A model generated the notes under the pieces. It ran no database searches and was not told where the DNA came from. It worked only from the letters and a program-made list of their open reading frames with translations. The translations under genes and the position numbers were made by a program. From contig NC_087076.1 in assembly GCF_026151205.1 (NCBI RefSeq), positions 16,453,142 to 16,517,141 of the forward strand: a DNA stretch of 64,000 bases, read 5' to 3'. Below, in pieces: positions 959 through 57,738 of this stretch. How positions within the stretch are numbered: position 1 is the first letter of the stretch; every line of letters starts with the position of its first letter. Source of the stretch: Bolinopsis microptera (taxonomy: Eukaryota).

Positions 959-3900
959 TCCTACTTTCTTAACATTGATGGCAATAAAAGCAATTTTGAT
1001 AGTCTATTAACTGAACTGCACCGCATTAACCAAAACTTCACCGTAATAGGTTTATCAGAAACTAACATAGGTCCTGATGAAAGCACCGTGTATTCAATTC
1101 CTAACTACAATAGTTTTTACCAGAATACTGTAGGTAATAAATCCAAAGGAACTGGTGTAGCATTATATGTTCAAGATAGACTTAGCAGTATTGTGAACGA
1201 ACTTGCGTCAGACGTTACCGAGAATTTAGAATCACTATTCGTAACTAGTCGTAAAAACTCAGAAGAAGTAACTTTTGGGGTTATTTACCGACCACCCAGC
1301 GGTAATTTTGCAAGCTTCCTGACAGAACTATCTAGAATACTCCAGATATTGCCTAAAAAATCTGCGTATATAATGGGAGATTTTAACGTCAACCTCCATG
1401 TTAATAGTAAAGAAGTTAGCAATCTCGAGGAAATAATGTTTAGTGCCGGTTTCTCGCCTCTTATATCAACACACACGCACGAGAAGCCGGGATGTAATCA
1501 AACGTGTATTGACAACATTTACACAAATGATATAAACAAGGTTGTTGCCTCAGGTACAGTATCTGACAGAATCTCGCATCATCTGCCAGTTTTTCATATT
1601 TTTGAAGACCTAGCTGTAACTAACTCTGAACCTCAAGTTAAACATACCCAATATTATGATTACAGTGAATCCAACGTTCGAGTCCTTGTTTCATCCTTAA
1701 ACCAACATTTCTCTGAGCACCCACCAAAAAACTTTATTGAATTTCACGACACATTCAAAACGAATCTAGACAAATCATGTAAACTCAGTAAACCTAAAGT
1801 CTCCAAAAGAACGCCAATGACAAATCCGTGGATAACAGGAGGATTAATCGCGTCTATAAATAAAAAACATGAGCTGCACGACCACTGGCATAAAGCGAAG
1901 AGAGAAAAATGTTTGCATAATCCAGGTAAACTTTGTCGTGAGATCAAGAAAGCCTGTCACTGCAATCCTTGTAATGATGCCAGGGAAAAGCATGCTAATT
2001 TTACTGACAAACGTAGGAGAGTTAAACACGTAATAAGACTAGCTCAACGCCTCTACACGTGCAACAAAATTGAGGAGTGTCAGGGTGACAGTAAAAAAAC
2101 CTGGCAGTTAATTAATAAAGTGCGAGGAAAGCAAAATAAGCAAATGAAACCGTCATTCATGATAAACAATGAGCGTGTTATTTGTCGACGAGTTATTGCT
2201 CATGAATTTAACAAGTACTTTGTGTCAATCGCCTCCAATCTGAACGAGGTCTATGAGAGGAGGATTGATGAAGATCCTATAATTGCTAAATCATTCACTG
2301 ACTACTTGCCACAGTCCTGTCCGTCAAGTATTTATCTTGCTGAATGTACAAGCTCTGAAATAATACAAATTATAAGTGAATTTAATAACGGTAAAGCTAG
2401 CGACATACCGGCACATGTAATGAAGCAGTGTAGTCAAACTATATCAGAACATCTTGCCAGAATTTATAACAACTGCATGAATGAAGGTGTCTTCCCTGAT
2501 CAACTGAAAACGGGTAAGATAACCCCGATATATAAAAAAGAAGATGAGGAATTACTAGAGAATTACAGGCCAGTATCAACATTACCAGTATTTGGTAAAA
2601 TATTTGAAAAAATTATTTACAGTAGATTATACAACTTTTTCTTATCTCGAGGAATAATATTCGAAAATCAGTTCGGCTTTAGAAAAAACCACTCGACAAG
2701 TCATGCTCTTAACTACTCCGTAAATCACGTCGAAGAAAAACGGAATAATAAAAACCACGTATTAGGAATATTTATCGATCTCTCTAAAGCATTTGATACC
2801 TTACCATTTGATATGCTACTTAAGAAACTTAGTAATTACGGAGTTAGAGGAAACGCACTAAAGCTGCTCTCCAGCTATCTAAATAATAGATACCAGTATG
2901 TTAGTGTACTTGGTGAAGAATCAGAGCCTCTCCCAGTTAAACTAGGCGTACCTCAAGGATCCGTTTTGGGCCCCTTGCTTTTTCTTATCTATATAAATGA
3001 CATCTATAGATGTAGTACATTAGGAAAATTTGTACTATTTGCAGATGACACAAACATCTTTGTAGCTGCTGAAACTAAGGAACAAGCATACAAAATAGCG
3101 AATGAAATTCTCGACTCTGTGTGCCAATATATGCGCCATAACCTACTGCACATTAATGTTAAAAAATCTTGTTACATGTACTTCTCGCCTACTAAACGTA
3201 AGACCATTGATAATACTGAAAATGACTTGAATCTAGAAATTGATGGGATCCCGATCAAACAGGTTACTGAAACGAAATTTCTAGGTGTAATTATTGATGA
3301 CAAACTGAGTTGGACACCTCATTTCGAGAAACTAACTAAGAAATTAAACAGCATATGTGGCCGTATTTATCGAATAAAAAACTCCCTCCCCAGCCAGCTG
3401 TACAAACAGATATACCACACTCTTTTTGAATCTCATCTAGGATACGGTATAACTGTATGGGGTGGTGTATCAATTAATAAGCTTTCACCACTATTCCTTG
3501 CACAGAAGAAATGTGTCCGAATCTTATTTGGGGACTCGGAAGCATTTAGCGACAAGTTTAAAACTTGTTCTCGTAGCAGGCCAATCCAGTGCAGTATAAA
3601 CAAGAAAGGTCAAATATCCAATGAATCAACTATACCTCACATTAAACCGTGTTCTATATGTATCAGCTTGAGGAAGACTGGTGATAAACAAGCAAGGCCA
3701 CATCGCTGCCAAATACTTGGGGCAGAATTCCACTCTAGAGAATCAACAAAACCTATTTTCCAATCTAAGGAACTAATGACAGTACATAACATATATAGAT
3801 ACAGATGCATTACTGAAACAATGAAGATAGTGAAGAGTCATCAGCCCATATCCATGTATTCTCTCTTTAAGAAGTCTGAGCTCAGAGATGACAGATTTGT

Positions 3901-4096
3901 GACACCACACTCATCTCACAATTTCGCATATAAAGGGGCAAATTTATGGAATAGGTTTCTTGAGCAGTCAAATGCACGTGGTAAAATAGGTTCACTAGGT
4001 TCAATTAAATCCCGATTGAAGCTTTCTATCATGAAGGCTCAACACCAACCTGACAATATTAACTGGCAGGACTTAAACTTCAACACTTTCCTATGA
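953..4096 (+). CDS. LINE ORF2: apurinic-like endonuclease plus reverse transcriptase (CR1/L2-type). The frame opens at 953; the 1002-aa ORF is listed from 1088
   Basis: N-terminal EEP-endonuclease motifs (GLSETNIGPDE…, GDFNVNLH). RT motifs (FGFRKNHSTSHAL, DLSKAFDTLP, VPQGSVLGPLLFLIYIND, FADDTNIF). No ORF1 upstream, so the copy is 5'-truncated. The 3'UTR (about 4097-4265) contains the hairpin GTTACACGCGGGTGTAAC. Confidence 0.85.
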   Translation, partial: GSSYFLNIDGNKSNFDSLLTELHRINQNFTVIGLSETNIGPDESTVYSIPNYNSFYQNTVGNKSKGTGVALYVQDRLSSIVNELASDVTENLESLFVTSRKNSEEVTFGVIYRPPSGNFASFLTELSRILQILPKKSAYIMGDFNVNLHVNSKEVSNLEEIMFSAGFSPLISTHTHEKPGCNQTCIDNIYTNDINKVVASGTVSDRISHHLPVFHIFEDLAVTNSEPQVKHTQYYDYSESNVRVLVSSLNQHFSEHPPKNFIEFHDTFKTNLDKSCKLSKPKVSKRTPMTNPWITGGLIASINKKHELHDHWHKAKREKCLHNPGKLCREIKKACHCNPCNDAREKHANFTDKRRRVKHVIRLAQRLYTCNKIEECQGDSKKTWQLINKVRGKQNKQMKPSFMINNERVICRRVIAHEFNKYFVSIASNLNEVYERRIDEDPIIAKSFTDYLPQSCPSSIYLAECTSSEIIQIISEFNNGKASDIPAHVMKQCSQTISEHLARIYNNCMNEGVFPDQLKTGKITPIYKKEDEELLENYRPVSTLPVFGKIFEKIIYSRLYNFFLSRGIIFENQFGFRKNHSTSHALNYSVNHVEEKRNNKNHVLGIFIDLSKAFDTLPFDMLLKKLSNYGVRGNALKLLSSYLNNRYQYVSVLGEESEPLPVKLGVPQGSVLGPLLFLIYINDIYRCSTLGKFVLFADDTNIFVAAETKEQAYKIANEILDSVCQYMRHNLLHINVKKSCYMYFSPTKRKTIDNTENDLNLEIDGIPIKQVTETKFLGVIIDDKLSWTPHFEKLTKKLNSICGRIYRIKNSLPSQLYKQIYHTLFESHLGYGITVWGGVSINKLSPLFLAQKKCVRILFGDSEAFSDKFKTCSRSRPIQCSINKKGQISNESTIPHIKPCSICISLRKTGDKQARPHRCQILGAEFHSRESTKPIFQSKELMTVHNIYRYRCITETMKIVKSHQPISMYSLFKKSELRDDRFVTPHSSHNFAYKGANLWNRFLEQSNARGKIGSLGSIKSRLKLSIMKAQHQPDNINWQDLNFNTFL

Positions 4097-5011: not shown

Positions 5012-6604
5012 TTATTCGGATATATATTTATTGATTATGTATTGAATTGGTGATAAATAATAAAATTGTCTTTTCTCAAAAAAAAAAAAAAAATTGTCTT
5101 TTCTCAGGGGAGTGAGATGTGCTAACTTGATTCCCTCCATACTTCCGGTTGAAAGAGAAACGTTGATAATATCACAAAGGGTAGGGAGGATTAGCTCAAG
5201 GTGCTCTGACAAGAGTTCTTTAGGTAGTGGATCAATCGATGAGGTTTTGATGCCAGATTCTTTGATCAATTCTCTGACTTCAAAAATAGTAGCTTTTCTA
5301 AATTCAGATAATGCCTGGCCATTGAAGATTGGAGAACTATTAGTCACAGTAGTGTTGGGAAATGATGTTCGGATTTTCTCAATTTTTTCAGTAAAATACT
5401 GGTTAAAGGCATTTACAGTTTCCTGAAGATTTTCTGAAGATGGTAAAGTGAGGTCCTTTTCTTTATCCAGGAAAGTGTCTACAAATTTGTAAAGGCTCTT
5501 TTGTGAGTGTTTGTATTTCTGGAAAGTATTAGAGAAGAACAGTTTTTTCTTTTTGAGAGTCAGCTCTGAACAGTGCTCTCGCAAATGAACAAAGATATCA
5601 TGATCAATTTCGAGACTTGACTTTTTCCAGGCTTTCTCAGCCTTTCTTCTTTCGGCTCTTGCAACTTTGTATTCGCCATCAAACCAGGGAGCAGTGGGAA
5701 TGTCTTTGATGGTTTTGGAATATTCTGGGGCATGTACATTTAGTATATGTTGACACCCATTGTTAAATTGAGTCACAACATCAGAGAAGCTCTTTTCTTC
5801 AAAAACCAACTCAGATAGAGCAACAGATAAATCACCTTTAAATTGTTCCTGATCTATGTCTCTGATCTTTCTAAAGCGTATGACTTTCTCACATTTGTCG
5901 ATGTCAGGAGGCTTATGAAGCTGAAATATAATTGGATAGTGGTCACAGGATGGGAAGCTTTTGGCCATGTTTTGCATTACCTCGACAGAAGTTTGATCTA
6001 CTACTTTGTGCGAAGAAATAACAGGATCAAGGATGTGACCTTTTTTATGTGTTGGTGAGTAGACAAGTTGATGAAGCCCAAAAGATGATAGTATGGTGTT
6101 CCACTCACTCACATGAGCAGAGATTCTATCTAGGTGCATATTAACATCTCCGCATAGCAAGAAATGCTTGTATTTTGAGAATGCATCCGTCAGGAAATCT
6201 TCAAAATCAGAGAGGAAATTTCCCAAGGACCCAGGTGGACGGTAGATACAGGAGCAGAATACGACAGATCCATCAACGAGTTTCAGTTTTGTGTTAATTG
6301 CCTCAAATGATCCGTCATTGTTGGCAAAAACCTTGATTAGACGAACACATGATTTGTAGATTATGGCAACACCTCCACCTGATTTGTTTTTGCGATACAC
6401 TTGGTAAAGTTTATAGCCATAGTTTTTTATTATTGCAGTGGTGTTGTTGCTCTCATCAGTTAGCCATGTTTCTGTAACAAAGAAAATAGATATGTTGTTA
6501 TCTTCTAAAAAGTTCATAACATGGTCAACCTTGTTGTTTAGAGAGCGAACATTCCAGCTTGCACATTTCATACTTAGGCTCTTAACTCCAGTCTTGTTCT
6601 TCAC
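5012..6604 (-). CDS. LINE ORF2 N-terminal part (AP-endonuclease domain, 530 aa), truncated before the RT domain
   Basis: Endonuclease motifs (CASWNVRSLNNK…, FVTETWL, LLCGDVNMHLD, SDHYPI). The ORF dissolves into junk (FFFFFEKRQF…) exactly at an A15 tract at 5082-5096. A different family from the 953-4096 copy. Confidence 0.75.
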   Translation of the reverse strand: MKNKTGVKSLSMKCASWNVRSLNNKVDHVMNFLEDNNISIFFVTETWLTDESNNTTAIIKNYGYKLYQVYRKNKSGGGVAIIYKSCVRLIKVFANNDGSFEAINTKLKLVDGSVVFCSCIYRPPGSLGNFLSDFEDFLTDAFSKYKHFLLCGDVNMHLDRISAHVSEWNTILSSFGLHQLVYSPTHKKGHILDPVISSHKVVDQTSVEVMQNMAKSFPSCDHYPIIFQLHKPPDIDKCEKVIRFRKIRDIDQEQFKGDLSVALSELVFEEKSFSDVVTQFNNGCQHILNVHAPEYSKTIKDIPTAPWFDGEYKVARAERRKAEKAWKKSSLEIDHDIFVHLREHCSELTLKKKKLFFSNTFQKYKHSQKSLYKFVDTFLDKEKDLTLPSSENLQETVNAFNQYFTEKIEKIRTSFPNTTVTNSSPIFNGQALSEFRKATIFEVRELIKESGIKTSSIDPLPKELLSEHLELILPTLCDIINVSLSTGSMEGIKLAHLTPLRKDNFFFFFEKRQFYYLSPIQYIINKYISE

Positions 6605-9618: not shown

Positions 9619-11132
9619 CACGTCCGTCTATGTCCGCTTGTCTCATAGAATCCAAAAAGGACAGGACATAGGCGGACATAGACGGACATATACGAACATT
9701 AGCTAAATAAAATTGCTAAATAAGATGTTCAATTTTTGCTGTTATATGGGGGATCATGTTTTTGTCCGGTACCCTATATTTTCAGTACCCTCAGTCATTT
9801 AGATGCTTCCTCCTCCTACTCTTCCTCCTTCCTCCTCCTCCTCCTGATCTTCCTCAGTCCTCTTCCTCCTCCCCTCCTCAGTCCTCCTCCTACTCCTCAG
9901 TCCTCCTCATCAGTCCTCAACAGTCCTCCTCCTCCCCAGTCCTCTCCTCCTCCTGAGTCCTCCTCCTGGGTCCTCCTCCTGGGTCCTCCTCCTGGGTCCT
10001 CCTCCTCCTCTTCATCCTCTTCATCCTCCTCTTCCTCCTCAGTCCTCAGTCTTCCTCAGTCCTCCTCCTCATCCTTCTCCTCAGTCTTCCATCCTCCTCA
10101 GTCCTCCCCCAGTCCTCCTCCTCAGTCCTCCTCCTCCTGGGTCCTCCTCCTCCTCTTCATCCTCCTCCTCTTCCTCCTCGGTCCTCAGTCCTCCGTCCTC
10201 AGTCCTCGGTCCTCATCCTTCTCATCAGTCCTCCTCCTCCTCGGTCCTCTCCCAGTCCCCCTCCTTCTCCTCCTCCTATTCAGTCCTCCTCCTCCTCCTC
10301 CTCCTCAGTTCTCCTCAGTCTTCCTTCTCAGTTCTCCTAAGACCTCCTCCTGAGTCCTCCTCTTCCTCTTCCTCCTGAGTCCTCCTCCTCCTCCCTCTCA
10401 GTCATCCTCCTCAGTCATCCTCCTCAGCCATCCTCCTCAGCCATCCTCCTCAGTACTCTTCAGTACTCTTCAGTCTTCCTCCTTCTCAGTCCTCCTGAGT
10501 CCTCCTCCTCCTGAGTCATCCTCCTCAGTCCTCCTCCTCCTCCTCCTGGGTCCTCCTCCTGGGTCTTCCTGATCCTCCCCAGTCCTCTTCCTTATCCCCT
10601 CCTCAGTCCTCCTCCTACTCCTCCTCCTCGTCCTCAGTCCTCCTCATCAGTCCTCAACAGTCCTCCTCCTCCCCAGTCCTCCTCCTCCTCCTCCTCCTCC
10701 TGGGGCCTTTTCCTGGGTCCCTATATAATTTGATATAATAAGTTAAAACTATTAATAGCTTTAGTGTGATTAATAAGTCGTTTGTTTTGTACAAAATTAT
10801 AATACATAGAAGTTGCAAAAAATTCTCAAAATGTTTGTCCGCTAATGTCCACCAATGTCCGCTAATGTCCACCAATGTCCGCTAATGTCCACCAATGTCC
10901 GTCCGAGTCCGCCAATATCCGTCCGGGTCCGCAAATGTCCGTCTGAGTCCGCCAATGTCCGTCCGAGTCCGCCAATGTCCGTCCGTGTCCGCCAATGTCC
11001 GTCCGAGTCCGCCAATGTCCGTCCGTGTCCGCCAATGTCCCAAAAAACACGTCCGTTGTCTCATAGAATCCAAAAAGGACAGGACATAGGCGGACATAGA
11101 CGGACGTGACATCCCCCCGCCCCCCCCCCCCT
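9619..11132 (+). repeat. Composite repeat, copy 1. Parts in order: a 65-bp hairpin module (CACGTCCGTCTATGTCCGC…GCGGACATAGACGGACGTG); a unique 100-bp segment; a 0.9-kb strand-pure pyrimidine minisatellite (TCC/TCA/GTC units); an AT-rich spacer; an inverted array of GTCCGCYAATGTCC repeats; a second hairpin module; a poly-C tail
   Basis: Seen directly. Module boundaries are shared with the copy at 21175-23166. The 'ORFs' at 9736-10353 and 10855-11112 are repeat translations. Confidence 0.7.
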
Positions 11133-11363
11133 CTATCTATAGTTTAGGCCATAAAAGGATTTCATGTTAGCAGAAACAAATTCTGGTTTATGAGTGGATC
11201 ATCAATTAATTATTTATTAGGTTTCAATTATTTATTGCTGTGTAAAATTGTATTATATTCTATTATATTATGTTATCTGGCTTTCAATTTTAAATGGAAG
11301 GAAAATCTTTTTATTTAAGTTAAAAAGTTAAAATTTCTAAATATCAAACAGTTCAGGGATGCA

Positions 11364-14300
11364 ATGAATGACATCAAGTTGCGTGACACTGAAGATAAAG
11401 CCACTGAATTGATTAATCAGCAACTGAAAAAGATAGTTGATACAAATGACACAGAATCCCTCAATTCTGGACTTGAAGATTTTGATATACCCGAAATCAC
11501 AGTCTTACCTTCTTTAGAAGAAATATTATCTCAAGATGATCCAATAACATTCCTAGACAGTGATTTGAGGGAAGATATTGACAATGTTCTCCTTGCTGAT
11601 GATGATATTATGTCAGTTATTTCAAGCAGTTCGTTTTCATCTTTAGGGAAGGGAGGTGATATGCCAAATGAAATAAAGACCAAGAAGAAGCTTTATGGCG
11701 AAGTTGTTAAATGTACTGGCTTATCACTTTTGGGTGGAATGTGCAATCGAGATGATAAAGCAACTGCAATCACGATCAAGAACAGATTGATTTGTGTCGG
11801 ATTTAGATCAGGCAAAGTGTCTTCAATGACCATTGATGGGGAAGTAAATGGAGAAATAACAAACAATAAAGTTTATGATTCAGGTGCAGTTACTTCACTT
11901 GACATAGAAGATGGGATCCTTGCTGCATCTCATTCCACAGGTGTCATACATGTGTGGAATTTGAAGAACAACTCTCATCTTCAGAAAATTGAAGTTAAAA
12001 TCACAGACAGCACAGTTATAAAAGTCGTTGTCATTGATCGAAATCATCTTCTCTATATGGTTTCCCAAGGGTCTGTCTTCGATGTTAAGCTTACAAAAAC
12101 TTTATCTATCAGAGGCTCTGAAAGTACATGCCTGTTTTCTGGATCACATGGGGAAGTTTTGGACATTCAAAGGCTCAAGGTTGCAAAAAATCACCCATTA
12201 TTCCCATACTGCATTATTGGTTTGTGCACCTTCAAACAAGTGATGCTTATTTCATTAAACCCTTACCCCAATATCAAGTACAGTGTGCGTCTTTGGGGGG
12301 ACACAACCACTCTTCCAGTAATAAACTGGTACTACCATGAAGTAGATTGTGAAAAGCCCAAACTTGTTATCGGCCGCAGCAAGAGGTTTGTCATGTATAG
12401 TCTAAACATCAATAACAGAAATCAAATATTCCTGAGAAAACTCAAATCATGCAGCCTTGAATTTCAGCTCATTTCGATTTTTTGGTTCAACACAAACACT
12501 GTTGCTGCTTTGGATTCCTCAGAAAAAGTTCACTTAATTGATGCCCATACTCTCTCTCGTTTGCAAACTGTGACACATGTGTCAGATATAGGTCTTTGTT
12601 ATAACACAGCGTTCTACCGATCTTTAGCCACTGGTGGTAATGTCAGTAAAGCTATGTTTGCTGCTTCTCAGTATGCATGTTATAATTCAGTTTGCTCATA
12701 CCCAGGAGGTACATGGTTCTTGGGGAGCAGAGATGTTATGAAAATTGCTTCAAATCCTTGGCGACAGAGGATAGTTGATCTTAAGAATGATTTGCACTTT
12801 GCTGATGCATTGGAATTAACTCTAGCCTTTTATTCTGGAAAAGGTAAAGGGGTTTCATCATTGGTGTTTCGTGACATGGACAAAGTTAAAGATTCATGTA
12901 TGGAATTGATAATAGAGATATTTTCACAATTCATAGAAGAAACACAGCAGGATTTGAATAGACTTGGAGTTGCTCTCAAGACATGCATCAATGCCTGCAT
13001 TTTTACCAAGAACACTTCTCTTGTTTATGATGAAATTTACACCAGATTGTCAAAGATAGGAGCTGTTCAACGAGTATTTTATGAGACATTGGAACCGTTC
13101 GTTTTTAATAACAAAATAAAATCTCTAAATCCAATTCTCATGAAGGATCTGCTAGAATACTTTAAAGAAAACGATAAGCTCCAAAGTTTTGAGAAATGCA
13201 TCCTCCACTTGGATCCAGTTAATCTCGACATCCACAACACTCTTATCCTTTGCAAAGAATATGACATGTATGAAGCTATCCTGTACATTTACAATGCCTG
13301 TCTCATGGATTACACCACACCTCTCACCAACCTCCTGGATGTACTACATGCTCAACTTATCGAAAATGACAAGACACACAAACAGGTTGGTTATGTCATT
13401 CTTATGTACATCAGTGATTGTCTGATTGGAAATATTCCCGATACCATGGGAGTGATTGATGCGGATGAGGAAGTGAGGATTCAAAATCTTGTTTTCAACA
13501 ATGTGTTTTGCAAGCACAGTGGTACTGAAAATCTCTTGTATCAGGAGCCGGACTATCCTTATGTGAAGTTAATTTTAAAGCTTGATACAAGAGAGTTTCT
13601 TAATGTTATGAGTGTCACTTTTGGACACCCTATGTGCTTACCAATCCATCAGATTGTAATTGACATTCTTCTGCATGTCATGATTGAGGAGGGACAAGAC
13701 TATACACCTCTACAGATTGGACATCTCTTTACATTTTTAGCCCGACAAAAAGTGGTAAACTCCTTCTATTTGGATAAAAAGTATCTCGACCAAGCTTTAG
13801 ATTGTCTAGCTACAAATGATGTGACTGGCCACGAAGAGAGGGAACAAGCACTCTTGGAACTAGTTCTTACAATCGGTATCACAGAATTTAACGAAGACAG
13901 GCTCCTTGCATTATCTGAGTCAGCAGGGTTTTACCAAGTGTGTGAAGTTATTTATGAGAAGAGAAACGAATACGAGAAAGTTCTGTTCTGCTACTGGTCG
14001 AACACCAGCAGAGTTGACAAAGTGTTTTCTTACATCTATCACATTATGGATGGGTCATATTCAGAGGAGGTGAAGACAAAGATAAGAGAGACCTGTGTTC
14101 AAAACATTGGAAAACTGATCGCTATAAACAATGAGGACACAGCTACTCTCATCCTAAAGGCATTCAGTGAGGATATTGAGAAGATAGTGTACATGTTGGA
14201 TGACCAGCCAAGGACATTGTACTCTCTACTACAATGTGTCTATGACATCAGTAAAGGATCTGAAGAGCCTGATATAAACAATGTCGAGATTCATCATATT

Positions 14301-15710
14301 TACATCAAGCTCATGTCACGCTATAATCCTGAATTTGTCTGTCCTTATCTTAAAGTGGCAACAGGATATAAGATCGATCCCATTCTGGAGCTTTGCTTAG
14401 TGGCCAATTTAAAAGATGCTGCAGCCTTTCTCTATGAGACAAAAGGTGATCTTGAGGATGCATTCAAATTGTACTATGACGTATTGAGGGATACTATCAG
14501 AGATAAACAGCTTGTATTTGTCGAAGAAACCCTTATTAAGATAATTAATTTTTGTCAAAGGAATTCAGACCAACTTTCACAAAATGACAAAGAATCTTAT
14601 TGGTTTTCTCTGATAGATTTGTTACTTGGATTGGGCGAAGCTCCTGATTGTATTGCATTACAAGAGATACTCATCGATAACATGCTTGGGTTTGTCTCTT
14701 CTTCGAAAGTGCTTGACAAACTAATCAAGAGCTCCTCCAACAAATCCTTCAAAACATATGGCGACATAAAGAAAGTGGTTGGTAACATGCTCGATACCTT
14801 GATGTATGAAGATGTGCTTCTCAAAAGTACCAGAAAAATCGTCCAGCACGACATCTTTACTGCCTTGAGAAGGGACAAGGTAGGTTTTGTGAAAGGAATA
14901 GACATCCACAAGAACGTTTGTGTAGTTTGCTGCCAGTACATAACTCCTGTTGACACAACGTTTTTCATCTTCCATTGTGCTCATCTCGCTCACACTGGCT
15001 GTGTTGAGCATATGAGGCAGAAGTACTGTGTGCTTTGTGAATCTGATCAGACTGTTAACAAGAAAACCCAGAAAATACTTAGCCGGGTAGTTTCTATTGA
15101 CGTTCCATACCATCAAACCCACTTTGAGTCTTGGAGAGCAAACTTTAATGAGCTAAGAAAGACATTAAACGGGGAGGACAGGATGGCTCTTATACATGAA
15201 CTATGTGATGATATTGGTAGCAATGCCTCCAATGATGATGAATATGATGTTGACCTAACGGCTGACTTCAAAGATTATTGCAAAGACCTCAATCTTGACA
15301 TGGATTCATTCATGACGAGTTCTAAAGAACCATCTGGAATGTCGTCTTCACGTGGGTCCAGAACTCAGGGGAACTTCGGCACCTCAAACATTACAGACTC
15401 AACTAGATCCTTCCAAAATTCACAGTTAATACACAGATCTTCAGCACCCTCCCCAACTCCAGCACGTCATTCTCCTCAAGGTGCTTCCAGAAACACTCGA
15501 AGAAGTCCTGTAAACAATCGTAACAGTCCAGTCACTAATCGCTATGAGCAATCAAAGAATCCGTTTGGAGATGAAGACTCTAATCCTTCCACTGCAGATG
15601 ATGTTAACCCATTTGGTGCTGGAACTCCCTCGCCTACTAATAATCCATTTGATGACGAGGACACTAATCCTTTTGCTGATGATTACAATCCTTTTGCCGA
15701 AGATATATGA
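11364..15710 (+). CDS. VPS8: Single-exon 1448-aa ORF with VPS8-like architecture (CORVET subunit): N-terminal WD40-like region, long alpha-solenoid, C-terminal RING-H2, then an acidic tail with five NPF motifs
   Basis: Uninterrupted 4.3-kb ORF starting at a true ATG, with an in-frame stop 45 nt upstream. RING-H2 spacing CVVCCQYI…FHCAHLAHTGC…CVLCE. The length and domain order match Vps8 better than Vps11, 18, 39 or 41. Identity is inferred from architecture only. Confidence 0.5.
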   Translation: MNDIKLRDTEDKATELINQQLKKIVDTNDTESLNSGLEDFDIPEITVLPSLEEILSQDDPITFLDSDLREDIDNVLLADDDIMSVISSSSFSSLGKGGDMPNEIKTKKKLYGEVVKCTGLSLLGGMCNRDDKATAITIKNRLICVGFRSGKVSSMTIDGEVNGEITNNKVYDSGAVTSLDIEDGILAASHSTGVIHVWNLKNNSHLQKIEVKITDSTVIKVVVIDRNHLLYMVSQGSVFDVKLTKTLSIRGSESTCLFSGSHGEVLDIQRLKVAKNHPLFPYCIIGLCTFKQVMLISLNPYPNIKYSVRLWGDTTTLPVINWYYHEVDCEKPKLVIGRSKRFVMYSLNINNRNQIFLRKLKSCSLEFQLISIFWFNTNTVAALDSSEKVHLIDAHTLSRLQTVTHVSDIGLCYNTAFYRSLATGGNVSKAMFAASQYACYNSVCSYPGGTWFLGSRDVMKIASNPWRQRIVDLKNDLHFADALELTLAFYSGKGKGVSSLVFRDMDKVKDSCMELIIEIFSQFIEETQQDLNRLGVALKTCINACIFTKNTSLVYDEIYTRLSKIGAVQRVFYETLEPFVFNNKIKSLNPILMKDLLEYFKENDKLQSFEKCILHLDPVNLDIHNTLILCKEYDMYEAILYIYNACLMDYTTPLTNLLDVLHAQLIENDKTHKQVGYVILMYISDCLIGNIPDTMGVIDADEEVRIQNLVFNNVFCKHSGTENLLYQEPDYPYVKLILKLDTREFLNVMSVTFGHPMCLPIHQIVIDILLHVMIEEGQDYTPLQIGHLFTFLARQKVVNSFYLDKKYLDQALDCLATNDVTGHEEREQALLELVLTIGITEFNEDRLLALSESAGFYQVCEVIYEKRNEYEKVLFCYWSNTSRVDKVFSYIYHIMDGSYSEEVKTKIRETCVQNIGKLIAINNEDTATLILKAFSEDIEKIVYMLDDQPRTLYSLLQCVYDISKGSEEPDINNVEIHHIYIKLMSRYNPEFVCPYLKVATGYKIDPILELCLVANLKDAAAFLYETKGDLEDAFKLYYDVLRDTIRDKQLVFVEETLIKIINFCQRNSDQLSQNDKESYWFSLIDLLLGLGEAPDCIALQEILIDNMLGFVSSSKVLDKLIKSSSNKSFKTYGDIKKVVGNMLDTLMYEDVLLKSTRKIVQHDIFTALRRDKVGFVKGIDIHKNVCVVCCQYITPVDTTFFIFHCAHLAHTGCVEHMRQKYCVLCESDQTVNKKTQKILSRVVSIDVPYHQTHFESWRANFNELRKTLNGEDRMALIHELCDDIGSNASNDDEYDVDLTADFKDYCKDLNLDMDSFMTSSKEPSGMSSSRGSRTQGNFGTSNITDSTRSFQNSQLIHRSSAPSPTPARHSPQGASRNTRRSPVNNRNSPVTNRYEQSKNPFGDEDSNPSTADDVNPFGAGTPSPTNNPFDDEDTNPFADDYNPFAEDI

Positions 15711-16423: not shown

Positions 16424-19400
16424 GTATGTGCTGAAGGCATTAAAGTTCAACATAATGTGTGATTTGGACATCTACGATCCTCCTTGCCCAGCGAAGGACG
16501 CTCCGGTCAAATCTCGGGGACTGATAAGGTTCAATTTTGTCACGTGATTATTATATTTGTCATTAACGCATGTAAAATCAACAATTATTGGTCGAATTAA
16601 TAATTTTTATACAATTCTCAAAACTTATTTCATCATGAGACATATATTTTCCATTTTGTAATCGAAACCTAAATGCAATGAAATTGCAGGACTAAATTCA
16701 CAGAATACAGCAACACGATAACCTCAGGGATCAGTGAGCAGAGGGAAAGGGTTAACTATGTGGAGCAGAAGGTAATTGTTCAAGACGTGTTCACTGTTCA
16801 GTTTTTAAATACGTATTATACCCTATCATATTCTTATTGATATAACGATAACAATCTAAAAATAGATTCGTCTGGGATAGTGAGTGATAGTACCCGAGAG
16901 GAGCCTGGATAACTGATAGAGTGCTAAGACCTGTAGCTGTTGTCAATTTCGCGCAATTTAATAGATATTGGCATTCGTGTGTATTGAAACTAAGTTGAAA
17001 TTTGTACCAAGCCTGACGTCACTTCAAAACAAGTTGAATCACATTCCGTTGTCATGGAAAAATGGTTCACTGGTGTGTGCTAATTGATGAAGAATGGTCA
17101 AGTGACACATTTAGGTGATATTTAACTGTGGTCACGTGTCTCATGTCTGTGTGTATGTCACGTGTCTGTGTGTATGTCATGTGACTTACTGACTTAGGCT
17201 CATTATCATGGACTCATCTTTAATGGATATCTTCCACCTCTATTTAAGTGTAAAGCCCTCAACTGTGTTTCAGTGTTTCGGATTTACACAAAGATATACA
17301 CCTCTTGCACAGGAGGTGACCGGGACATGATTTTAGGCCTGACCGGGACCGGGACCGGGATACAAAATGTGACTTGACCGGGACCGGGACCGGGACTGAG
17401 ATTATCAATTTACCGTGACCGGGACCGGGACCGGGACCAATAATTTCTGGGATTTCTATCTTACCGGGACCGGGACCGGGACCGGGACCAACAATCCAAT
17501 TTTACCGGGATGACCGGGATTTGACCGGGATGACCGGGATGACCGGGATTTGACCGGGATGACCGGGACCAAAACTGGTATTCTCATATTGAAAGCTGCA
17601 ACTTTCATTTACATTATAATTAAACAATTTGAATAAGTAATAACTAGAATATTAAATTAGAAAAAACTAGAAAAAACCCGTCAATATGGGGCATGGGCCT
17701 AATGTACTACACCAATAATGTTCATGTACTGATTACTCAAGTTCACCATCATTCCTCATTCCTCAATCAATGATCCCTCAAATTATTCAACAGTTTCATT
17801 CTCCAATTCCAATTGACAATTGGGCGTAGCCCGAGTTGAAAACTTGATGTTAGTTTGCACTTATGAGTTATGTAACGATATTAGTTACCTAAACTTGTTT
17901 AGCAATTTTAAACATTGTTTTATTTGGCTCAGAGGTTGTTTAAAGATGAAATTCACAATGAATGAAAGTAAAAACTTAAAATCACAGTGAATGAAATTAT
18001 GTAAAAGATCCCGGTCAAAATCCCGGCAAATTTGAGTGATTGACCGGGACCAGGACCGGGACCGGGACCAAGAATCCTGAATTAACCGGGACCGGGACCG
18101 GGACCGGGATCATAAATCAGCATTTGACCGGGACCGGGACCGCGACCGGGATGAAAAATGTGACTTGACCCGGTTTACCGGGACCGGGACCGGGACCGGG
18201 ATAGCTCAAAATTGCCAATCCCGGTACCGGGATTCCCGGTACCGGGAATCCCGGTCACCTCCTGCTCTTGCATAATGCATTGCACTATACACACTCGTAG
18301 CTATCTCTTCGCAGGGTCTATCTACAGCGTGTATTTTGTATTTTTCAATTATAAAATCATAATTTTAAATTTAACGAATCATTAAAATTAAAATTCTAAC
18401 TCCATTATTTTTCCAGGTACTGTCTACAGTAAAGCCAGTAACGAGGTTTATCCCAATAACCTATGATACAGTTAAGAGAGTGTCTGTGATCAGTTTATGT
18501 ACTTTTTCTGGAGTTATACAGGGCAGAAAAGCTGGGGGCTTTTTCAGGAGGTTTGATTTAAACTGTTTCTTTCCACGACAAAGTTTATTAATTAAATGAT
18601 ACATATAACGATAAGATAAAATAATTTTTTGATTCTAGACAGAAATATACGCTTTAACCGATTTCGCTTGCAACTTATTTCCTTATTTCTGCCTTTCAGG
18701 ATTCTGTATCCAGTATTTGGATTTGTTGGAGGTAATGCTGCCTGTTACCCAAAACAAACCTACAGTCTAACTTCCAAAACTCTAACCACCACTTTACCTC
18801 TGGTCGCTACTGCTGGGAAGGCAACTGTTGATGGTAAGATCGGGGCAGTAGTTCAAGGAATTTAGTTGAATTAGGGAAATGTCTCCTGGTATTAATATTT
18901 ATGATGGTTTTCGCTGAAACGAACTTCTTGTCCACTCGATTGTCTTAATTGTTAATGCAATTCACTTAATGTACAACATCATATCATAATTCATTTGACA
19001 GTTATCAAATTATATATTCGCATTTATCCACACTATTTACATTACACGTACAACGTGATATTATTATCAGTGTACTGTGTTCAACACCAACTACACCGAT
19101 CAATTGCCAATCTGCGAAACATGTATTTATTATTATCACTTCGAGATGGCAGGGCCTACTCTCATGCTGTCTATATGTGATGATTAACTCTGAAAAACTA
19201 GAGGACAACTGGGGAATGATCCCAGAACCTCGACATATCGCGTGTCTTGCTCTACCTGGGATCATTCCCCAGTTGTCCCCTAGTTTTTCAGAGTTAATCA
19301 TCACATATAGACAGGATGAGAGTAGGCCCTGCCATCTCGAAGTGATAATTCATTTGACCTTGTCCTCTTGTCAGGAAGTAGATTTGTGTTCCATACGGGG

Positions 19401-19733
19401 AAGAAAGTGTCCTACTTCATATACGACAAAGTCAGTGAACAGTTCCCTGATAAATCTATCGTGGAGGAGCCCGTTTCAGATGAGCCAAACAACATAGAAA
19501 CTATTCAGGAAGCTGTTTTGATCGATGATTCATCAGAGGCTTCCGAGGACACTGTCTCTTCAGAAGAATTATCAGAAGACGTAGTTTTAGTTGAAGAACA
19601 AAGTTCTTCAGATACCGTAATTTCTCTTGAGAAGCTTCCTTTACCGACGGAGGTTCCGCCGATTGAAGAGAATCTTGGAATGGGCGACAAGGATCATGAT
19701 GATATGTACAGCACCCGATCATCACGATCATGA
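16424..19733 (+). CDS. Unidentified multi-exon gene (span includes introns). Candidate exons at about 16424-16540 (MCDLDIYDPPCPAKD…), 16690-16771 (TKFTEYSNTITSGISEQRERVNYVEQK), 18418-18550, 18699-18836 (ILYPVFGFVGGNAACYPKQ…) and 19359-19733 (…RFVFHTGKKVSYFIYDKV… with an acidic serine-rich tail)
   Basis: Stop-free segments bounded by AG/GT dinucleotides. No homolog recognised from memory. Several CAG|GTA sites are ambiguous between donor and acceptor. Confidence 0.3.
17302..18272. mobile_element. Non-autonomous hAT-like MITE, 955 bp. 16-bp TIR (CAGGAGGTGACCGGGA / TCCCGGTCACCTCCTG), flanked by an 8-bp target-site duplication CTCTTGCA. The interior is two clusters of (GACCGG)n hexamer repeats
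   Basis: TIRs at 17310-17325 and 18249-18264. Identical 8-mers at 17302-17309 and 18265-18272. An 8-bp TSD with a CAG… TIR start is characteristic of hAT elements. Confidence 0.6.
19132..19349. repeat. Near-perfect palindrome: 94-bp arms (2 mismatches) around a 29-bp loop. A hairpin-forming MITE or foldback unit, inside an intron of the 16.4-19.7 kb gene
   Basis: The left arm (19132-19225) is the reverse complement of the right arm (19255-19349). The mirrored ORFs 19005-19304(-) and 19177-19497(+) both read MMINSEKL…DNWGMIP and are artefacts of the palindrome. Confidence 0.6.
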
Positions 19734-21174
19734 TTAATTTATTAATAATACTAATTAAGTTGAATGATATGTCTCTTGGGCATTTTCTACCATGGCTATG
19801 TAAAGATCATATAGGCGTTTTGTTGTATGAAGATTTTATAAAAAATGTATTTGGTATTTATGATCGTTGAAGAACCTGTAATTTTCATTATTCAGCATTT
19901 TCTCTGTCTATCTTAACAAGCTCCTAATTTAATCTAGATTCAACTTTAGCCATCTTTCTATCTTTCTGGAATTATCATGACATTTCATGATTATTTTACA
20001 CTGCCATGATACTGTAACTGATATATCACTCTAAAGATAATGTATGGTTGATCTGTTAAAAGCTAACAGTGTATTGTAACTAATCACGTGACACTATTCT
20101 CAGTTAATGTATGGTTGATCTGTTAGATCAGTGTGCTCCACACTCATTCTACGACTCTATCACAAGTCCAACAACTTGCCCCTCCGACTATTGGGACAGG
20201 AAACCCTCCAAACTCTGGTTTTACTCTTTCTGGATTGTCGTATTCCTGTTTTATGCTATAAGGTAAGACAAAGCATCTGATGTGTGGGTATAGTTTATGC
20301 TACCAGGCAGACAATAATGAAACTGCAGATAGTGAAATGTAGTTTAAGTATAATTAAAAGACATTACGATATATATATGATCGATGAGGATTGGGACCCA
20401 TTTTTCCACTTATTAACCGTCGAAAGATCATCCGTTTCTTCAAAATCAGTCCTTCTTGTCAACATTAATTTCAATAATTTAAGATCTTTGATAGAATTTT
20501 CTGGAATTCAAACGGAAGTCAGGTTATCATTACAGGTTATGTATGGGTAACTCAGCAACTAACATTTACAAGAAAACATCTAATTATATCCGCGGATCTT
20601 CGACATCGCCAACCAAATCAGAAGAAAGCGAAATTGGTGTAGTTGTTGTCAGAGAGAGAAGGAGGTTGGTTGTTGACAATGTTTTTTAATATATATTACA
20701 TTATTTACAGTGTATTAATTAGGATGGACTGGTTTGATCCCGATCAAAAGCTTGACGGTCACACATTTGCGCAAATTAAAATCGTTTTACGTCGCGCGCT
20801 ATGAGTTTTGGTCTGGGTAGCACAGCAATGAAGCGGCGCGCGCACACACAATTACATGCATTTCGCGAAAATTCGTACGTACGTACGTTTGATCGATCAG
20901 CTAGATCTGTCTTAAATAGAATTTGCGCACTACTTCTATTTTAATTCTTGAACATGTTATTCAGTGTAATCAGCATTGCCAGACATTGACTAATTTTTAC
21001 CTCTGATTAAAAAAACTGATGCGATCTACAGTTTACAACCTGACAATGATTCTTCAGCTTCCTAGTGATTGTGTGGTCTTTTCTGTCTTTGGTTTTCACT
21101 GGAACCTTACTGTTGCTGGGATCTCTAAACCCTTTGCTTTTTTAGACTTGCACATATCAATAAAGGGGGGTGTC

Positions 21175-23219: not shown

Positions 23220-23595
23220 ATTTTCAGTTCATTGAGTAGAGATGACGATGACGATATCGCCCACGAGTTTTGGGAAGAAACGAAACATAGAGACGGAAAA
23301 ACTCGAATGAAACGTGTCCTCAAAACTTATCCACTGGTAACCAACAATTTAAAGATTTTGACATAACTTTATTTTTTACTTCCCGTGATTGAGGCATGAC
23401 AAAGGAACGTGTTCATTTCTGACTACAATCTAACCTATTAAATGACAACATCACTTTCAGGGATTTGTGAAATTGCCAGTTCCCTGTTTACATCCTGACT
23501 TCACGAGGGTGATGCTACCGAACTACGATATAATGGGCAAACTACAGTGCCGGAATGAACCTGAAGAGGAGGAGGACATAGCAAACGAAACATGA
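23220..23595 (+). CDS. Two terminal exons of an unidentified gene (…DDDDIAHEFWEETKHRDGKTRMKRVLKTYPL / GFVKLPVPCLHPDFTRVMLPNYDIMGKLQCRNEPEEEEDIANET*). Possibly the 3' end of the 16.4-19.7 kb gene
   Basis: Open segments with AG acceptors and a GT donor, ending at a stop at 23593-23595. Weak. Confidence 0.2.
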
Positions 23596-31858: not shown

Positions 31859-33851
31859 CAGGTAAGGGAACAGATACGTTGCCCTGATCAGTATGATGAA
31901 ATTATAAGATTGATTGAAAAAAAAACCTCTACGTACAATGTTCCTGACTCACCCGATTCGGATTCTGGTGATTCGAAGACGGAATCCTCGTCTGACGAAG
32001 ACGAAACCGATTACTCAACGGTGGTTCTTGATCTAGGATCTCACAGGATAAAGGGAGGGTTTGCTGGAGATGATGCACCCCGAGCTGTGTTCAAGTAAGC
32101 ACATATAGATAAGAACTACACTTTTGCATTTCATTTCTTTACTTATTTCTTATAGATATCAATATTTCATGCGTATTAACCTAGAAAAGCTCAAAAGCTG
32201 TTAAAAATTATAAAATTTTGTAAAATTCCCCAGATCAGTCATAGCAATACCTGCAGCTCGTGGAGTTATGTTGGGTATGGGCGGCAAAGATTACTTCGTC
32301 GGCGATGAGGCCGTTTGCAAAGCTGGAGTAATGGGAAGACTAGATAATGCATTCGTAGACGAACCATCCAATGTTGACATTTCGGCTCTAAGGACGGAAA
32401 GTCCATTACCCTCCAGCACTGATTCTGAAGGTGAAGAAGAGGGGTCCCGAGTTGGAGTCCCACTAGTTATTGACATGGGTAGTTACATGGTCAAAGCTGG
32501 CTTTGTTGGAGATGATGAGCCTTTTGCTGATTTTCCTCCCCTCGTAGGAAGACCAAGGCATCGGGGGGTTATGGTTGGTATGGGACAGAAAGATTCGTAC
32601 ATTGGTAGTGAAGCGATGTCAAAGCGGGGCATACTAACGCTTACTAACCCTCTTGCTCCACCAAGAAGAACAGCTCAGTCTGTAGATGGTAGTCGACCAC
32701 AACAAGCGCCAACCTATGCACAAGCGCCAGTGTATACACAATGTAGTTCAACTCCTCCTGCCCCACCGGGGGCCCCGTCACCACCTCGTATTTTAGCACA
32801 GAGAGCACTGAGGCGGAGTCTTAGTGGCTGTTCTGCGCCAACTCCACCGGGTGCGCCACCTCCACCATGTGCAGCACCTCCGCCAAGTGCGCCACCTCCG
32901 CCAGGTGCGCCACCTCCGCCAAGTGCGCCACCTCCACCATGTGCGCCATTACGAGCACCGTCACCACACGCACGGCCACAACAAAGAGCAGCTACAATGT
33001 TATTCGGTTCAGCTCGAGGGCCAACTTCAGCTCTTGCCCCAAAGATGGAAATGTCTAATAGACCTGGATCAATGTTTGGAAGTTTAAGTTTTGGTGCTAC
33101 CCAGTCACTTTCCCGACCACTATATACAATAGGTGCACTACCATCACCAGATGCACGGCCATCATCAGACGGAATGTGTTCTTCTTCACGACCAATCACT
33201 GCCGCTGCACCGTTAGTCAAGAGTAAAGAATCTTCCCTTTTCTCTCAGCCTAAGTTTAGAAAGTCCCCAGATTCATGGCCAACACCGTCTACATCAAACA
33301 TCTGTGGGAGTTCTAATTTTGGTGGCTCAGAAGCACCTCCACAATTTGGAGGTGTGTATGTCTCCCAGGCACCACCACAACCTGGATCAATGTCTGGAAG
33401 TTTAAGTTTTTGTGACGCACCATTTTCAAGTGAGGATGAAGAAGTGAAGTTAATGCAGAATTATCCTCCAGGAAAGGGGTTAGGGAAGGGAGGTTCGGCA
33501 CTATCCCGACCACATGTCTCACAGGCACCACCACCACCACCCCAGGCACCATCACCACCTACATCATTCATGTGTACTATAGGGAGTGATCCAGTTGATG
33601 GTCCACAGAAAAGGTTTGCAAGGTTCAACACCAACAACAACACTTTAGCTAAAAAATCCAGTCCAGCACTGGCACAGGATCTACAATCACGAAGACAGGT
33701 GATCAAGAATGAAAAAGTATCTGATGATGTTACTTCCGATACTGATGAATGGGATAGCTCCAGCAGCAGTTATTCTGGAGCTAATATCGGATACAGTAAT
33801 GACAGAAAATGTTTTACTGCGGAGGTAAATTTTCAATTTTCTACGCCATAG
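31859..33851 (+). CDS. Two or more exons in frame with the last recognised PARP4 exon (frame compatibility between the 31565 donor and the 31859 acceptor was not checked). They encode two tandem actin-N-terminus-like modules (about actin residues 8-73), a poly-proline FH1-like tract ([11 protein letters not shown] x7) and a Ser/Gly-rich tail. Most likely the C-terminal linker of PARP4, but possibly a separate gene
   Basis: Acceptor at 31858 (cacag|GTAAGG) and donor at 32095 (TTCAAG|gtaagc). Module 1: [25 protein letters not shown]…[27 protein letters not shown]. Module 2: [60 protein letters not shown]. Compare actin: [61 protein letters not shown]. Confidence 0.5.
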
Positions 33852-56913: not shown

Positions 56914-57738
56914 ATGGGGACCTCTTTTGAGTCGAGTAGTGCTGTTTTCATTCTCCCAGAGAACTCATCTAGATCAGAGGGACAGATACTAAAATTGAAG
57001 CACCCTAAAGATAATCAAACCTGTCTTGCATACCTAAGTTTGGAATCTAAATCGCTGAATGAACTATTATATCTAAAAGAAAAGCATGTTTCATGGTTTG
57101 TTGGTGATCATGTTCTTGGAGATACTAAGCTAAGTATAGGGACCCCACTTGATCCAACATTTATGATTATTCCTTACCTCCTCAAAAACGTGGACAAATA
57201 TTCTCCATTGGGTCAAATTCTTGTTGATGAAAAATATCCATCTGCAATACATTTAGAAGATCTTTTGTCAGAATCCGACCTCTCACTCGTTGCAGACATT
57301 AAACCATCACTAGATAAAATCATCAAATTCAACAAAGAAAAAACATTGAACTGGCTATCTGGCAAGGTAAGTAAAGTTGCTTCAGCTATGAAGAAATGTG
57401 GTATCTCTCCTGGATTTAACTCAACTCTATCAGACGAAGAATACACAAGGTATGCTTGTGGAATTGTTTCAGATTATATAAATTCGTCTTTGTCAGTAGA
57501 TTTACAGGACAGGCTCGGGATCCAGCTGAGTGTTGATAACAGTGAGTGTGAAAAACCCGCCAAGAAACCAAAACTGAGCAGTACAAATGATCATGATGCT
57601 TGTAAGCCTGCTAAAAATTCAGTTCCAAAAGGAAAAGAAAAGGCTCCAAAACGTAAAGCCCAAAAACAGTTAGCTCCTGTCAATACCAAAGGAATGAAAT
57701 CCATGTCTTCATTTTTCAAAAAAGTGGAAACAAAATGA
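56914..57738 (+). CDS. RNASEH2B: Ribonuclease H2 subunit B homologue, encoded as a single uninterrupted 274-aa exon
   Basis: Window segments with human RNASEH2B counterparts in parentheses: HVSWFVGDHV (HHSWFINQSV); TPLDPTFMIIPYL (TPVDPLFLLLHYL); FNKEKTLNWLSGKV (YSKEKTLKWLEKKV); YTRYACGIVSDYI (YIRYAHGLISDYI); KGMKSMSSFF (KSGMKSIDTFF). True ATG at 56914. Confidence 0.75.
   Translation: MGTSFESSSAVFILPENSSRSEGQILKLKHPKDNQTCLAYLSLESKSLNELLYLKEKHVSWFVGDHVLGDTKLSIGTPLDPTFMIIPYLLKNVDKYSPLGQILVDEKYPSAIHLEDLLSESDLSLVADIKPSLDKIIKFNKEKTLNWLSGKVSKVASAMKKCGISPGFNSTLSDEEYTRYACGIVSDYINSSLSVDLQDRLGIQLSVDNSECEKPAKKPKLSSTNDHDACKPAKNSVPKGKEKAPKRKAQKQLAPVNTKGMKSMSSFFKKVETK

Follow-up and report, generated by a model that had tools for sequence, protein, structure and literature searches.

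An intron-free VPS8 coding sequence with a conserved C-terminal cluster of NPF motifs in ctenophores

We analysed a 64,000-nucleotide stretch of the Bolinopsis microptera genome (contig NC_087076.1, positions 16,453,142 to 16,517,141; hereafter the window), focusing on a gene for a homologue of VPS8, which is the subunit on the Rab5 side of the endosomal tether CORVET. VPS8 and CORVET belong to the core eukaryotic machinery and have a very stable architecture. The complete coding sequence is found on the plus strand at 11364..15710 and consists of a single open reading frame (ORF) with an ATG start, 1448 amino acids (aa) and a stop codon. An original prediction, made from the letters of the sequence alone, had described this ORF as uninterrupted, and the ORF listing of the window bears it out. 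The closest in-frame stop 5' of the ATG is 16 codons away. Two minus-strand ORFs (14597-14968 and 14721-15122) lie within the VPS8 coding sequence of the opposite strand, which is strongly constrained, and are regarded as chance occurrences.

The protein starts with M-[ND]-D-[IL]-[KQ]-L-[RK]-D, a sequence kept in five species, and continues into a VPS8-type beta-propeller (11757..12719, aa 132-452) that is matched by Pfam PF23410 Beta-prop_VPS8 with an E value of 2.2e-65 and 221 bits (cut-off 28.9) over profile positions 25-357 of 358. The central VPS8 TPR/alpha-solenoid (13074..13622, aa 571-753) aligns with yeast Vps8 and matches the full profile (1-200) of PF12816 TPR_Vps8 with an E value of 4.4e-43 and 147.6 bits (cut-off 27). 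A distal alpha-solenoid (14088..14870, aa 909-1169), strongly conserved within the clade, gives sub-threshold Pfam matches only, namely to TPR_Vps41 (aa 909-1044; 20.4 bits, under its cut-off of 27), to the Clathrin/VPS repeat and to TPR_VPS8_2 (aa 1111-1169).

Further towards the C-terminus lies a RING-H2 finger (14919..15038, aa 1186-1225), recognised by a regular expression of the form C-x2-C-x15-C-x-H-x2-H-x2-C-x8-C-x2-C starting at aa 1186. No Pfam RING model matches the window VPS8 at E<1. The eight ligands (C1186, C1189, C1205, H1207, H1210, C1213, C1222 and C1225) are all invariant in five species, and in an exhaustive HMMER search the region aligns with its counterparts in canonical VPS8s, including the RING region of Trichoplax at an E value of 1.3e-14. 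The finger is followed by a conserved segment (15054..15212, aa 1231-1283) with many invariant columns and a proportion of nonsynonymous differences (pN) of 0.06 versus Mnemiopsis, by a fast-evolving Ser/Asp/Asn/Pro-rich linker (15234..15548, aa 1291-1395), and by an acidic cluster of Asn-Pro-Phe (NPF) motifs (15558..15707, aa 1399-1448). The WD40, solenoid and RING-H2 architecture read earlier from the sequence is recovered, the first two elements by Pfam and the third by its pattern and invariant ligands.

The assignment to VPS8 rests on several searches. The top chain in the PDB is yeast Vps8 in CORVET (8qx8_F; E value 3.9e-12), aligned over aa 570-1193 with yeast residues 537-1205, and all named homologues in the database search, among the matches listed, are VPS8. 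The profile search agrees with the identity originally proposed, with VPS8 models far above their cut-offs and VPS41 below. Neither VPS41, whose Pfam model stays under threshold, nor VPS11/18 is supported; the best PDB chain and the named matches are all VPS8, and the protein is closer to VPS8 than to the related tether subunits VPS41, VPS11, VPS18 and VPS39. By homology, the ORF is a true VPS8 and represents the ctenophore orthologue of this CORVET-specific subunit, which would be predicted to bind Rab5-GTP and to form CORVET with VPS11 and VPS3. It shares with canonical VPS8s (yeast 8qx8 chain F, cnidarian and bilaterian) the propeller, the TPR/alpha-solenoid, the C-terminal RING-H2 and a length of about 1400 aa, and it aligns with them over the full length. 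However, canonical VPS8s of different phyla are 45-52% identical to one another, whereas the ctenophore form is only about 30% identical to every canonical one. Ctenophore proteins are generally long-branched.

The closest proteins among the matches listed (P0001-P0004) are 89, 75, 75 and 63% identical to the window VPS8, followed by canonical VPS8s at about 30%. A protein of Mnemiopsis leidyi, an established laboratory ctenophore, labelled 'hypothetical protein' in GenBank (KAL5259692.1; 88% identity) sits in the 90% identity cluster of P0001, and an ENA protein (P0124) reaches 98% identity. P0002 is also present on Tara plankton metagenome scaffolds, and a protein of Pleurobrachia bachei from EukProt (P0135) is a more distant member of the clade. 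Between the window and Mnemiopsis VPS8, pN is 0.064 and the proportion of synonymous differences (pS) is 0.74, which is saturated; the ratio of nonsynonymous to synonymous substitution rates (dN/dS) is about 0.02. Because pS is saturated while pN is 0.064, the VPS8 ORF is kept open by strong purifying selection across a long divergence.

The intron-free structure is shared by close relatives. The coding span equals three times the number of residues plus three in L001, L002, L003, L005-L008 and the Mnemiopsis chromosome locus L009, and six orthologous ctenophore loci from independent assemblies each contain one uninterrupted VPS8 ORF. The gene is embedded in contigs of 2.0 Mb (L001), 320 kb (L003) and 42 kb (L002), in an 18.5-Mb Mnemiopsis chromosome and in Tara scaffolds. 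In Mnemiopsis, the genes 3' of VPS8 are ApoO, TUSC2 and PARP4, all spliced. In the window, tblastx finds collinear short exons of ApoO (about 16434-19745), TUSC2 (about 20100-20840 and 23223-23547) and PARP4 (from 24017), and the order VPS8-ApoO-TUSC2-PARP4 is collinear between the window and Mnemiopsis. ApoO exons are also found 3' of VPS8 in the 75%- and 63%-identical species, and spliced ApoO follows VPS8 in each of those among the six orthologous loci for which downstream flank is available. This conserved synteny within ctenophores does not bear on where the gene was located before the ctenophores arose.

This result shows that the intron-free VPS8 is one orthologous and syntenic ctenophore locus, and therefore no cDNA contaminant. 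Absence of introns is all that speaks for an assembly artefact created by a processed cDNA contaminant, the alternative that the original prediction had kept in reserve; the same structure in long genomic contigs of six independent assemblies, with spliced flanking genes in conserved order, refutes it and leaves it with a negligible probability. A recent, lineage-specific retrogene is ruled out by the intron-free state at a syntenic locus in divergent ctenophores and by purifying selection.

The contrast drawn earlier between VPS8 and intron-split neighbours stands in part. It holds for PARP4, and for ApoO and TUSC2 as well, all of which appear as short exons against the Mnemiopsis models, and VPS8 is indeed intron-free; the UGT and MEX3-like ORFs in the window span only part of their domains. 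What does not stand is the singularity of VPS8. A complete RNASEH2B-like protein (56914..57738, plus strand) is encoded by one uninterrupted 274-aa ORF, with the Pfam domains Ydr279_N and RNase_H2-Ydr279 and a PIP-box-like end (...MKSMSSFFKK), and VPS8 is therefore not the sole intron-free coding sequence in the window.

Directly upstream of the start codon, the plus strand contains two acceptor-like AGs within 11349..11356, 7-12 nucleotides (nt) 5' of the ATG. The first (cAG, 11349-11351) had been pointed out before as a possible splice site; it is present and is joined by a second at 11355-11356 (ttcAG, ending at 11356). Six of the seven VPS8 loci compared in ctenophores have a YAG trinucleotide 3-11 nt 5' of the ATG, for which the background rate is 0.226 (binomial p of about 7.5e-4, a value whose significance is overstated because the test treats loci as independent). 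This conservation suggests that the AG is a candidate spliced-leader trans-splice site or the acceptor of an intron in the 5' untranslated region (5'UTR), and VPS8, intron-free in its coding sequence, is probably yet not splice-free. More specifically, the VPS8 mRNA would receive a spliced leader, or lose a 5'UTR intron, at the conserved AG just 5' of the ATG. Ctenophores commonly use spliced-leader trans-splicing: in Hormiphora at least 56% of Iso-Seq reads show it, and Mnemiopsis has it too (PMC8527503). The 3' part of the Hormiphora leader, allowing up to three mismatches, has no match in the window, and neither does Rfam at gathering thresholds.

The same region contains a two-codon upstream ORF (ATG CAA TGA, 11359-11367) that overlaps the VPS8 start codon. 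Its counterpart in L001 reads ATG CCA TGA, and an upstream ATG is also present in Mnemiopsis and L002.

How the coding introns were lost can be approached from an intron-rich relative. In the coral Porites lobata, tblastn identifies at least 31 coding exons of VPS8 within 35.6 kb, a count that covers 989 of 1417 residues, hence the true number is higher; in the six orthologous ctenophore loci the coding sequence has no intron. Because about 30 or more introns were lost, the gene structure points to a reverse-transcriptase-mediated event. We propose that an ancestral VPS8 with about 30 or more introns would have lost them via reverse transcription before the sampled ctenophore lineages split, either by retrogene replacement or by recombination with cDNA. 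Amphioxus SYCP1 provides an example of retrogene replacement (PMC5803294). Like ctenophore VPS8, it is a normally multi-exon housekeeping gene with an intron-free coding sequence that is conserved and under selection. It differs in that the VPS8 event predates the split of the sampled ctenophores and has left no retroposition hallmarks; in addition, VPS8 may have replaced its parental locus or lost its introns in situ, and a deep relative has two introns.

Some observations limit a straightforward reading as a retrogene. No poly(A) remnant is found 3' of VPS8, the longest A-run in 1200 nt downstream being 5, and there is no convincing target-site duplication, the sole flanking direct repeat being a 26-nt AT-rich sequence with 77% identity. 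At such an age decay of these hallmarks is expected, and their absence is uninformative. In addition, the deep relative (protein P0136, encoded at L011 4535-9339, ENA ERZ25071824) has three coding exons and about 49% identity overall to the window VPS8. Its two GT-AG introns, of 132 nt (5420-5551) and 101 nt (5689-5789), are both located in the propeller region and are followed by 3.5 kb of intron-free sequence; with both spliced out, an open 1523-codon coding sequence results. ApoO is not downstream of VPS8 at this locus. Given these two introns, the common ctenophore ancestor may not have been fully intron-free. Relative to the nearest introns of Porites, their positions are shifted by 10 and 7 nt and their phases differ, and we reject as unproven the position homology that would make them ancestral. 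They may have been retained through a 3'-biased loss in situ, or gained secondarily following a retrocopy.

The deep relative is also where the strongest competing account finds its footing, namely a loss of introns in place, either step by step or through 3'-biased gene conversion by partial cDNAs, as opposed to a processed retrocopy inserted at a new locus. Both of its introns lie in the 5' quarter of the gene with only intron-free sequence after them, which is the polarity expected of cDNA-mediated conversion; the probable acceptor conserved just 5' of the ATG and the lack of both poly(A) remnant and target-site duplication are in line with such a course. On the other hand, introns away from the Porites positions and in another phase may have been acquired secondarily by a gene that had already become intron-free, and lost hallmarks are what age alone would produce. 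We regard in-situ loss as a real but clearly less probable route. A second account, in which the intron-free VPS8 is a retro-duplicate beside an intron-rich parent and the NPF tail marks a sub- or neo-functionalised paralogue, appears quite improbable to us. The unusual divergence of about 30% identity to canonical forms and the novel tail would fit a relaxed or neo-functionalised copy, and LINE-type reverse-transcriptase ORFs are nearby; however, purifying selection is very strong over the full length, long branches are general among ctenophore proteins, and searches with a word prefilter and with HMMER gave no second VPS8 of Mnemiopsis, Pleurobrachia or another ctenophore among the matches listed, which is a weak negative.

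The expressed retrogene suggested by the original prediction is supported in part, in that the intron loss fits reverse transcription. The ancient syntenic state, the missing poly(A) remnant and target-site duplication, the two introns of the deep relative and the YAG 5' of the ATG limit that support.

Two LINE-type (long interspersed nuclear element) ORFs with RVT_1 and an endonuclease domain are located 5' of VPS8 in the window, at 1088-4096 (plus strand) and 5012-6604 (minus strand), and a related reverse-transcriptase ORF is found 5' of VPS8 in the 89%-identical species (L001 5795-9154, minus strand).

A single-ORF VPS8 was also encountered outside the ctenophore clade. Protein P0071 (L004 3001-7131, ENA ERZ25066855) is encoded by one uninterrupted 4131-nt ORF, like the ctenophore form. 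It differs in being cnidarian-like, 52% identical to Acropora and Porites, and in ending with the canonical F-x-L-x-L tail without NPF. This protein shows an independent wholesale loss of VPS8 introns in a second, cnidarian-like lineage. An intron-free gene structure is a well-understood phenomenon, and P0071 provides another case of it within VPS8 itself; of the two features, the NPF tail is of greater interest. Ctenophore VPS8 also offers a clean example of ancient wholesale intron loss from a 4.3-kb housekeeping coding sequence.

The tail of the window VPS8 (example tail peptide NPFDDEDTNPFADDYNPFAEDI) contains five NPF motifs, at aa 1399 (NPFGDED), 1415 (NPFGAGT), 1427 (NPFDDED), 1435 (NPFADDY) and 1442 (NPFAEDI), whose NPF codons occupy 15558-15566, 15606-15614, 15642-15650, 15666-15674 and 15687-15695 on the plus strand. 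These are the exact contexts listed in the original prediction, and all fall in the last 50 residues, which comprise 13 D/E and zero K/R. A degenerate sixth motif, NPS (15582-15590, aa 1407-1409), reads NPSTADD in place of NPFAEES in Mnemiopsis. From the composition of the whole protein 0.12 NPF are expected, and shuffling never reached five, neither in 20,000 shuffles of the whole protein nor in 200,000 each of the 218 residues that follow the RING and of the final 60 aa. The NPF cluster is far beyond chance.

The motifs are conserved in a background that is not. All six aligned species have the four distal NPFs and the terminal D-I unchanged, whereas the 105-residue linker has 3 invariant columns; its pN is 0.24 in the comparison with Mnemiopsis and 0.45-0.51 for species further away. 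The linker is presumably disordered, judging from its composition and rapid divergence. An AlphaFold2 model of the C-terminal 348 aa, built on a five-sequence alignment, has a mean pLDDT (predicted local distance difference test) of 39, too poor for assessing the RING fold or disorder, and was not used. Some species have lost the two proximal motifs or carry degenerate versions of them: the second is NPS in the window species, a change shared with the 98%-identical ENA proteins P0124 and P0130-P0132, and elsewhere DPF and PDPS are found. Six NPFs are present in Mnemiopsis and in P0004, the most divergent protein of the first set. In all 17 clade sequences examined, four to six NPFs fall within the last 80 residues.

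To deeper relatives, we compared aa 1100-1448 exhaustively by HMMER with 1.84 billion representatives clustered at 50% identity. The tail-spanning matches, among the matches listed, are three, and all are members of the clade: P0004, Pleurobrachia bachei P0135 (four NPFs, ending ...NPFGDDDEI) and P0136 (six NPFs behind an unrelated SPKQP-repeat linker, ending in NPF itself). A word-index search with the tail alone (aa 1231-1448) gave no match at E<=0.01; it missed the clade's own proteins too and is uninformative. Because P0135 and P0136 share only 42% identity with one another, and about 50-53% each with the query, over the aligned C-terminal part, the NPF cluster, as judged from these sequences, spans deep ctenophore divergences. 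Acidic residues are found clade-wide mostly after the NPF, and the surrounding linker is barely alignable. The persistence of NPFs in a fast-diverging acidic tail has the signature of a selected short linear motif.

The very C-terminus, [ED]-D-I-COOH (15699-15707, aa 1446-1448), is kept in the six aligned species, and Pleurobrachia ends in D-E-I; we take this end to resemble a class III PDZ-binding end.

Other animals end their VPS8 differently. Among the 116 non-ctenophore (cnidarian and bilaterian) VPS8s compared (P0005-P0120), no tail has an NPF cluster, and a single isolated NPF occurs in Tubulanus. Instead, 77 of the 116, from corals to vertebrates, end in an F-x-L-x-[LV]-x-x-P(P)-like sequence, of which Trichoplax VPS8 has a related form; hemipteran and thrips VPS8s stop right after the RING, without a tail. 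To our knowledge, no function has been assigned to this C-terminal motif. The F-x-L-x-L-x-P-P-like end is absent from the ctenophore VPS8s compared, whose post-RING tail measures about 220 aa as opposed to about 110-130 aa in canonical forms. In ctenophores the canonical end is replaced by a variable, low-complexity linker and four to six NPF motifs in an acidic setting. An alignment of the tail with orthologues had been suggested as a check on the NPF repeats, and it finds the cluster conserved and restricted to ctenophores, against a fast-evolving background and with acidic residues after the motifs.

All EH domains have NPF as their generic ligand (PMC13282721). Those of EHD1-4 are positively charged on their surface and favour an NPF followed by acidic residues (PMC13282721, section 8.2); examples of such EHD-type motifs are found in MICAL-L1 (NPFEEEEED), Rabenosyn-5, Rab11-FIP2 and Rabankyrin-5, all Rab effectors (PMC13282721). 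In the window VPS8, four of the five NPFs have an acidic residue at +2/+3, and one (NPFDDED) also at +1. The ctenophore tail probably binds EH-domain proteins, and in view of these flanks we favour the EHD/RME-1 type.

We hypothesize that the VPS8 tail would act as a multivalent platform of short linear motifs that recruits EH-domain proteins to VPS8/CORVET-positive early endosomes, with the acidic flanks directing it to the EHD/RME-1 class, and that tethering would in this manner be coupled to EHD-driven tubulation, fission and recycling. Elsewhere in animals the same job is done by the NPF-bearing Rab effectors Rabenosyn-5, MICAL-L1 and Rab11-FIP2. Like these three, VPS8 is a Rab-linked endosomal protein with NPFs, mostly followed by acidic residues, in a region predicted to be disordered; with Rabenosyn-5 it further shares several NPFs near the C-terminus and a weak compositional match to the Rabenosyn-5 NPF family (PF16601). 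The motifs of VPS8 differ in being placed on a subunit of a multisubunit tether, in having acidic residues mostly from +2 and not from +1, and in being predicted ligands only. A link between VPS8 and EHD proteins is biologically plausible.

Two points tell against an EHD-type partner. Directly after the NPF, at +1, Gly or Ala is frequent, which makes the agreement with an EHD-type flank incomplete, and PF16601 scores 15.4 bits against a cut-off of 27.6 (E value 0.027). Because this score is under the cut-off, the VPS8 tail is no member of the Rabenosyn-5 NPF family, and the resemblance is one of motifs, with no homology.

The main rival to EHD/RME-1 type partners are EH proteins of the Eps15/intersectin type. 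The NPF cluster would then bind scaffolds of clathrin-mediated endocytosis with N-terminal EH domains (Eps15, intersectin or REPS), and not the EHD ATPases, and would link CORVET to new endocytic vesicles for capture by Rab5 endosomes. The generic affinity of EH domains for NPF allows this, endocytic accessory proteins typically carry multivalent NPF clusters at the C-terminus, and the Gly or Ala at +1 in several motifs is not acidic. Nevertheless, the 13 D/E and no K/R in 50 aa, together with the acidic +2/+3 positions in four of five motifs, match the preference of EHD proteins, and inspection of the tail sequences finds none of the DPF, FxDxF or clathrin-box motifs that are usual in coated-pit accessory proteins. 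We consider such scaffolds rather unlikely partners.

The repeats may also have arisen without any relation to EH domains, as a by-product of tandem duplication in an acidic tail, as a ligand of some other partner or in an electrostatic role. Near-repeat units of 18 nt (AATCCNTTTG-NNGANGAN, family D6) encode NPF-x-D/E-D/E at spacings of 24 and 21 nt, an arrangement compatible with an origin by local duplication. The loss or degeneration of the two proximal motifs in some species and the lability of the post-RING tail in evolution, with none at all in some insects, would fit as well. However, six aligned species retain every N, P and F of the four distal motifs despite saturated synonymous sites and a barely alignable linker, and NPF clusters persist in the otherwise unrelated tails of Pleurobrachia and P0136. 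A role outside EH binding is improbable in light of this pattern.

Taken together, the explanation we prefer, with moderate confidence, combines a VPS8 orthologue, an ancient reverse-transcriptase-mediated loss of introns and a tail predicted to recruit EH-domain proteins. Its most specific extension is considerably more tentative and is put forward as a conjecture from motif content: ctenophore CORVET itself may recruit EHD/RME-1-type fission ATPases, or another EH protein, via the VPS8 tail, which would couple early-endosome tethering and the fission of recycling tubules on one protein, in place of the separate NPF-bearing Rab effectors, such as Rabenosyn-5, of other animals.

A literature search found no paper joining Vps8, NPF and EHD1, and co-mentions of CORVET, Vps8 and EHD were incidental; it likewise found none on CORVET in ctenophores and none on an intronless VPS8 in Mnemiopsis. 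A 2026 review of EHD proteins makes no mention of VPS8 or CORVET (PMC13282721). The phylum-wide exchange of the C-terminal end of VPS8 for a conserved multivalent NPF platform predicts a direct contact between a tether and an EH protein, and an NPF-tailed VPS8 adds a data point on how an early-branching lineage of animals wires its endosomal recycling.

Ctenophores may be the sister group of all remaining animals. Because of this position, coupling of CORVET to EHD proteins via VPS8, if true, could represent an alternative or ancestral wiring of the animal endosomal system.

Repeat blocks at 10400-10710 and 10816-11075 are found directly 5' of VPS8. One is a C/T-rich array of the CCTCCTCAG type, the cause of a local strong negative GC skew, and the other is a minisatellite with a period of 10/20 nt (TGTCCGCCAA / TGTCCGTCCG). 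On the 3' side, in a 527-aa ORF (32268-33851, plus strand), two fragments resembling the N-terminal part of actin precede long Pro-rich stretches of the PPPPxAPPPP type. This ORF is either a C-terminal exon of PARP4 that includes a segment derived from actin, or the result of merged gene models; the Mnemiopsis PARP4 model (L009, 19229 onward; 2279 aa) has an Actin Pfam match as well.

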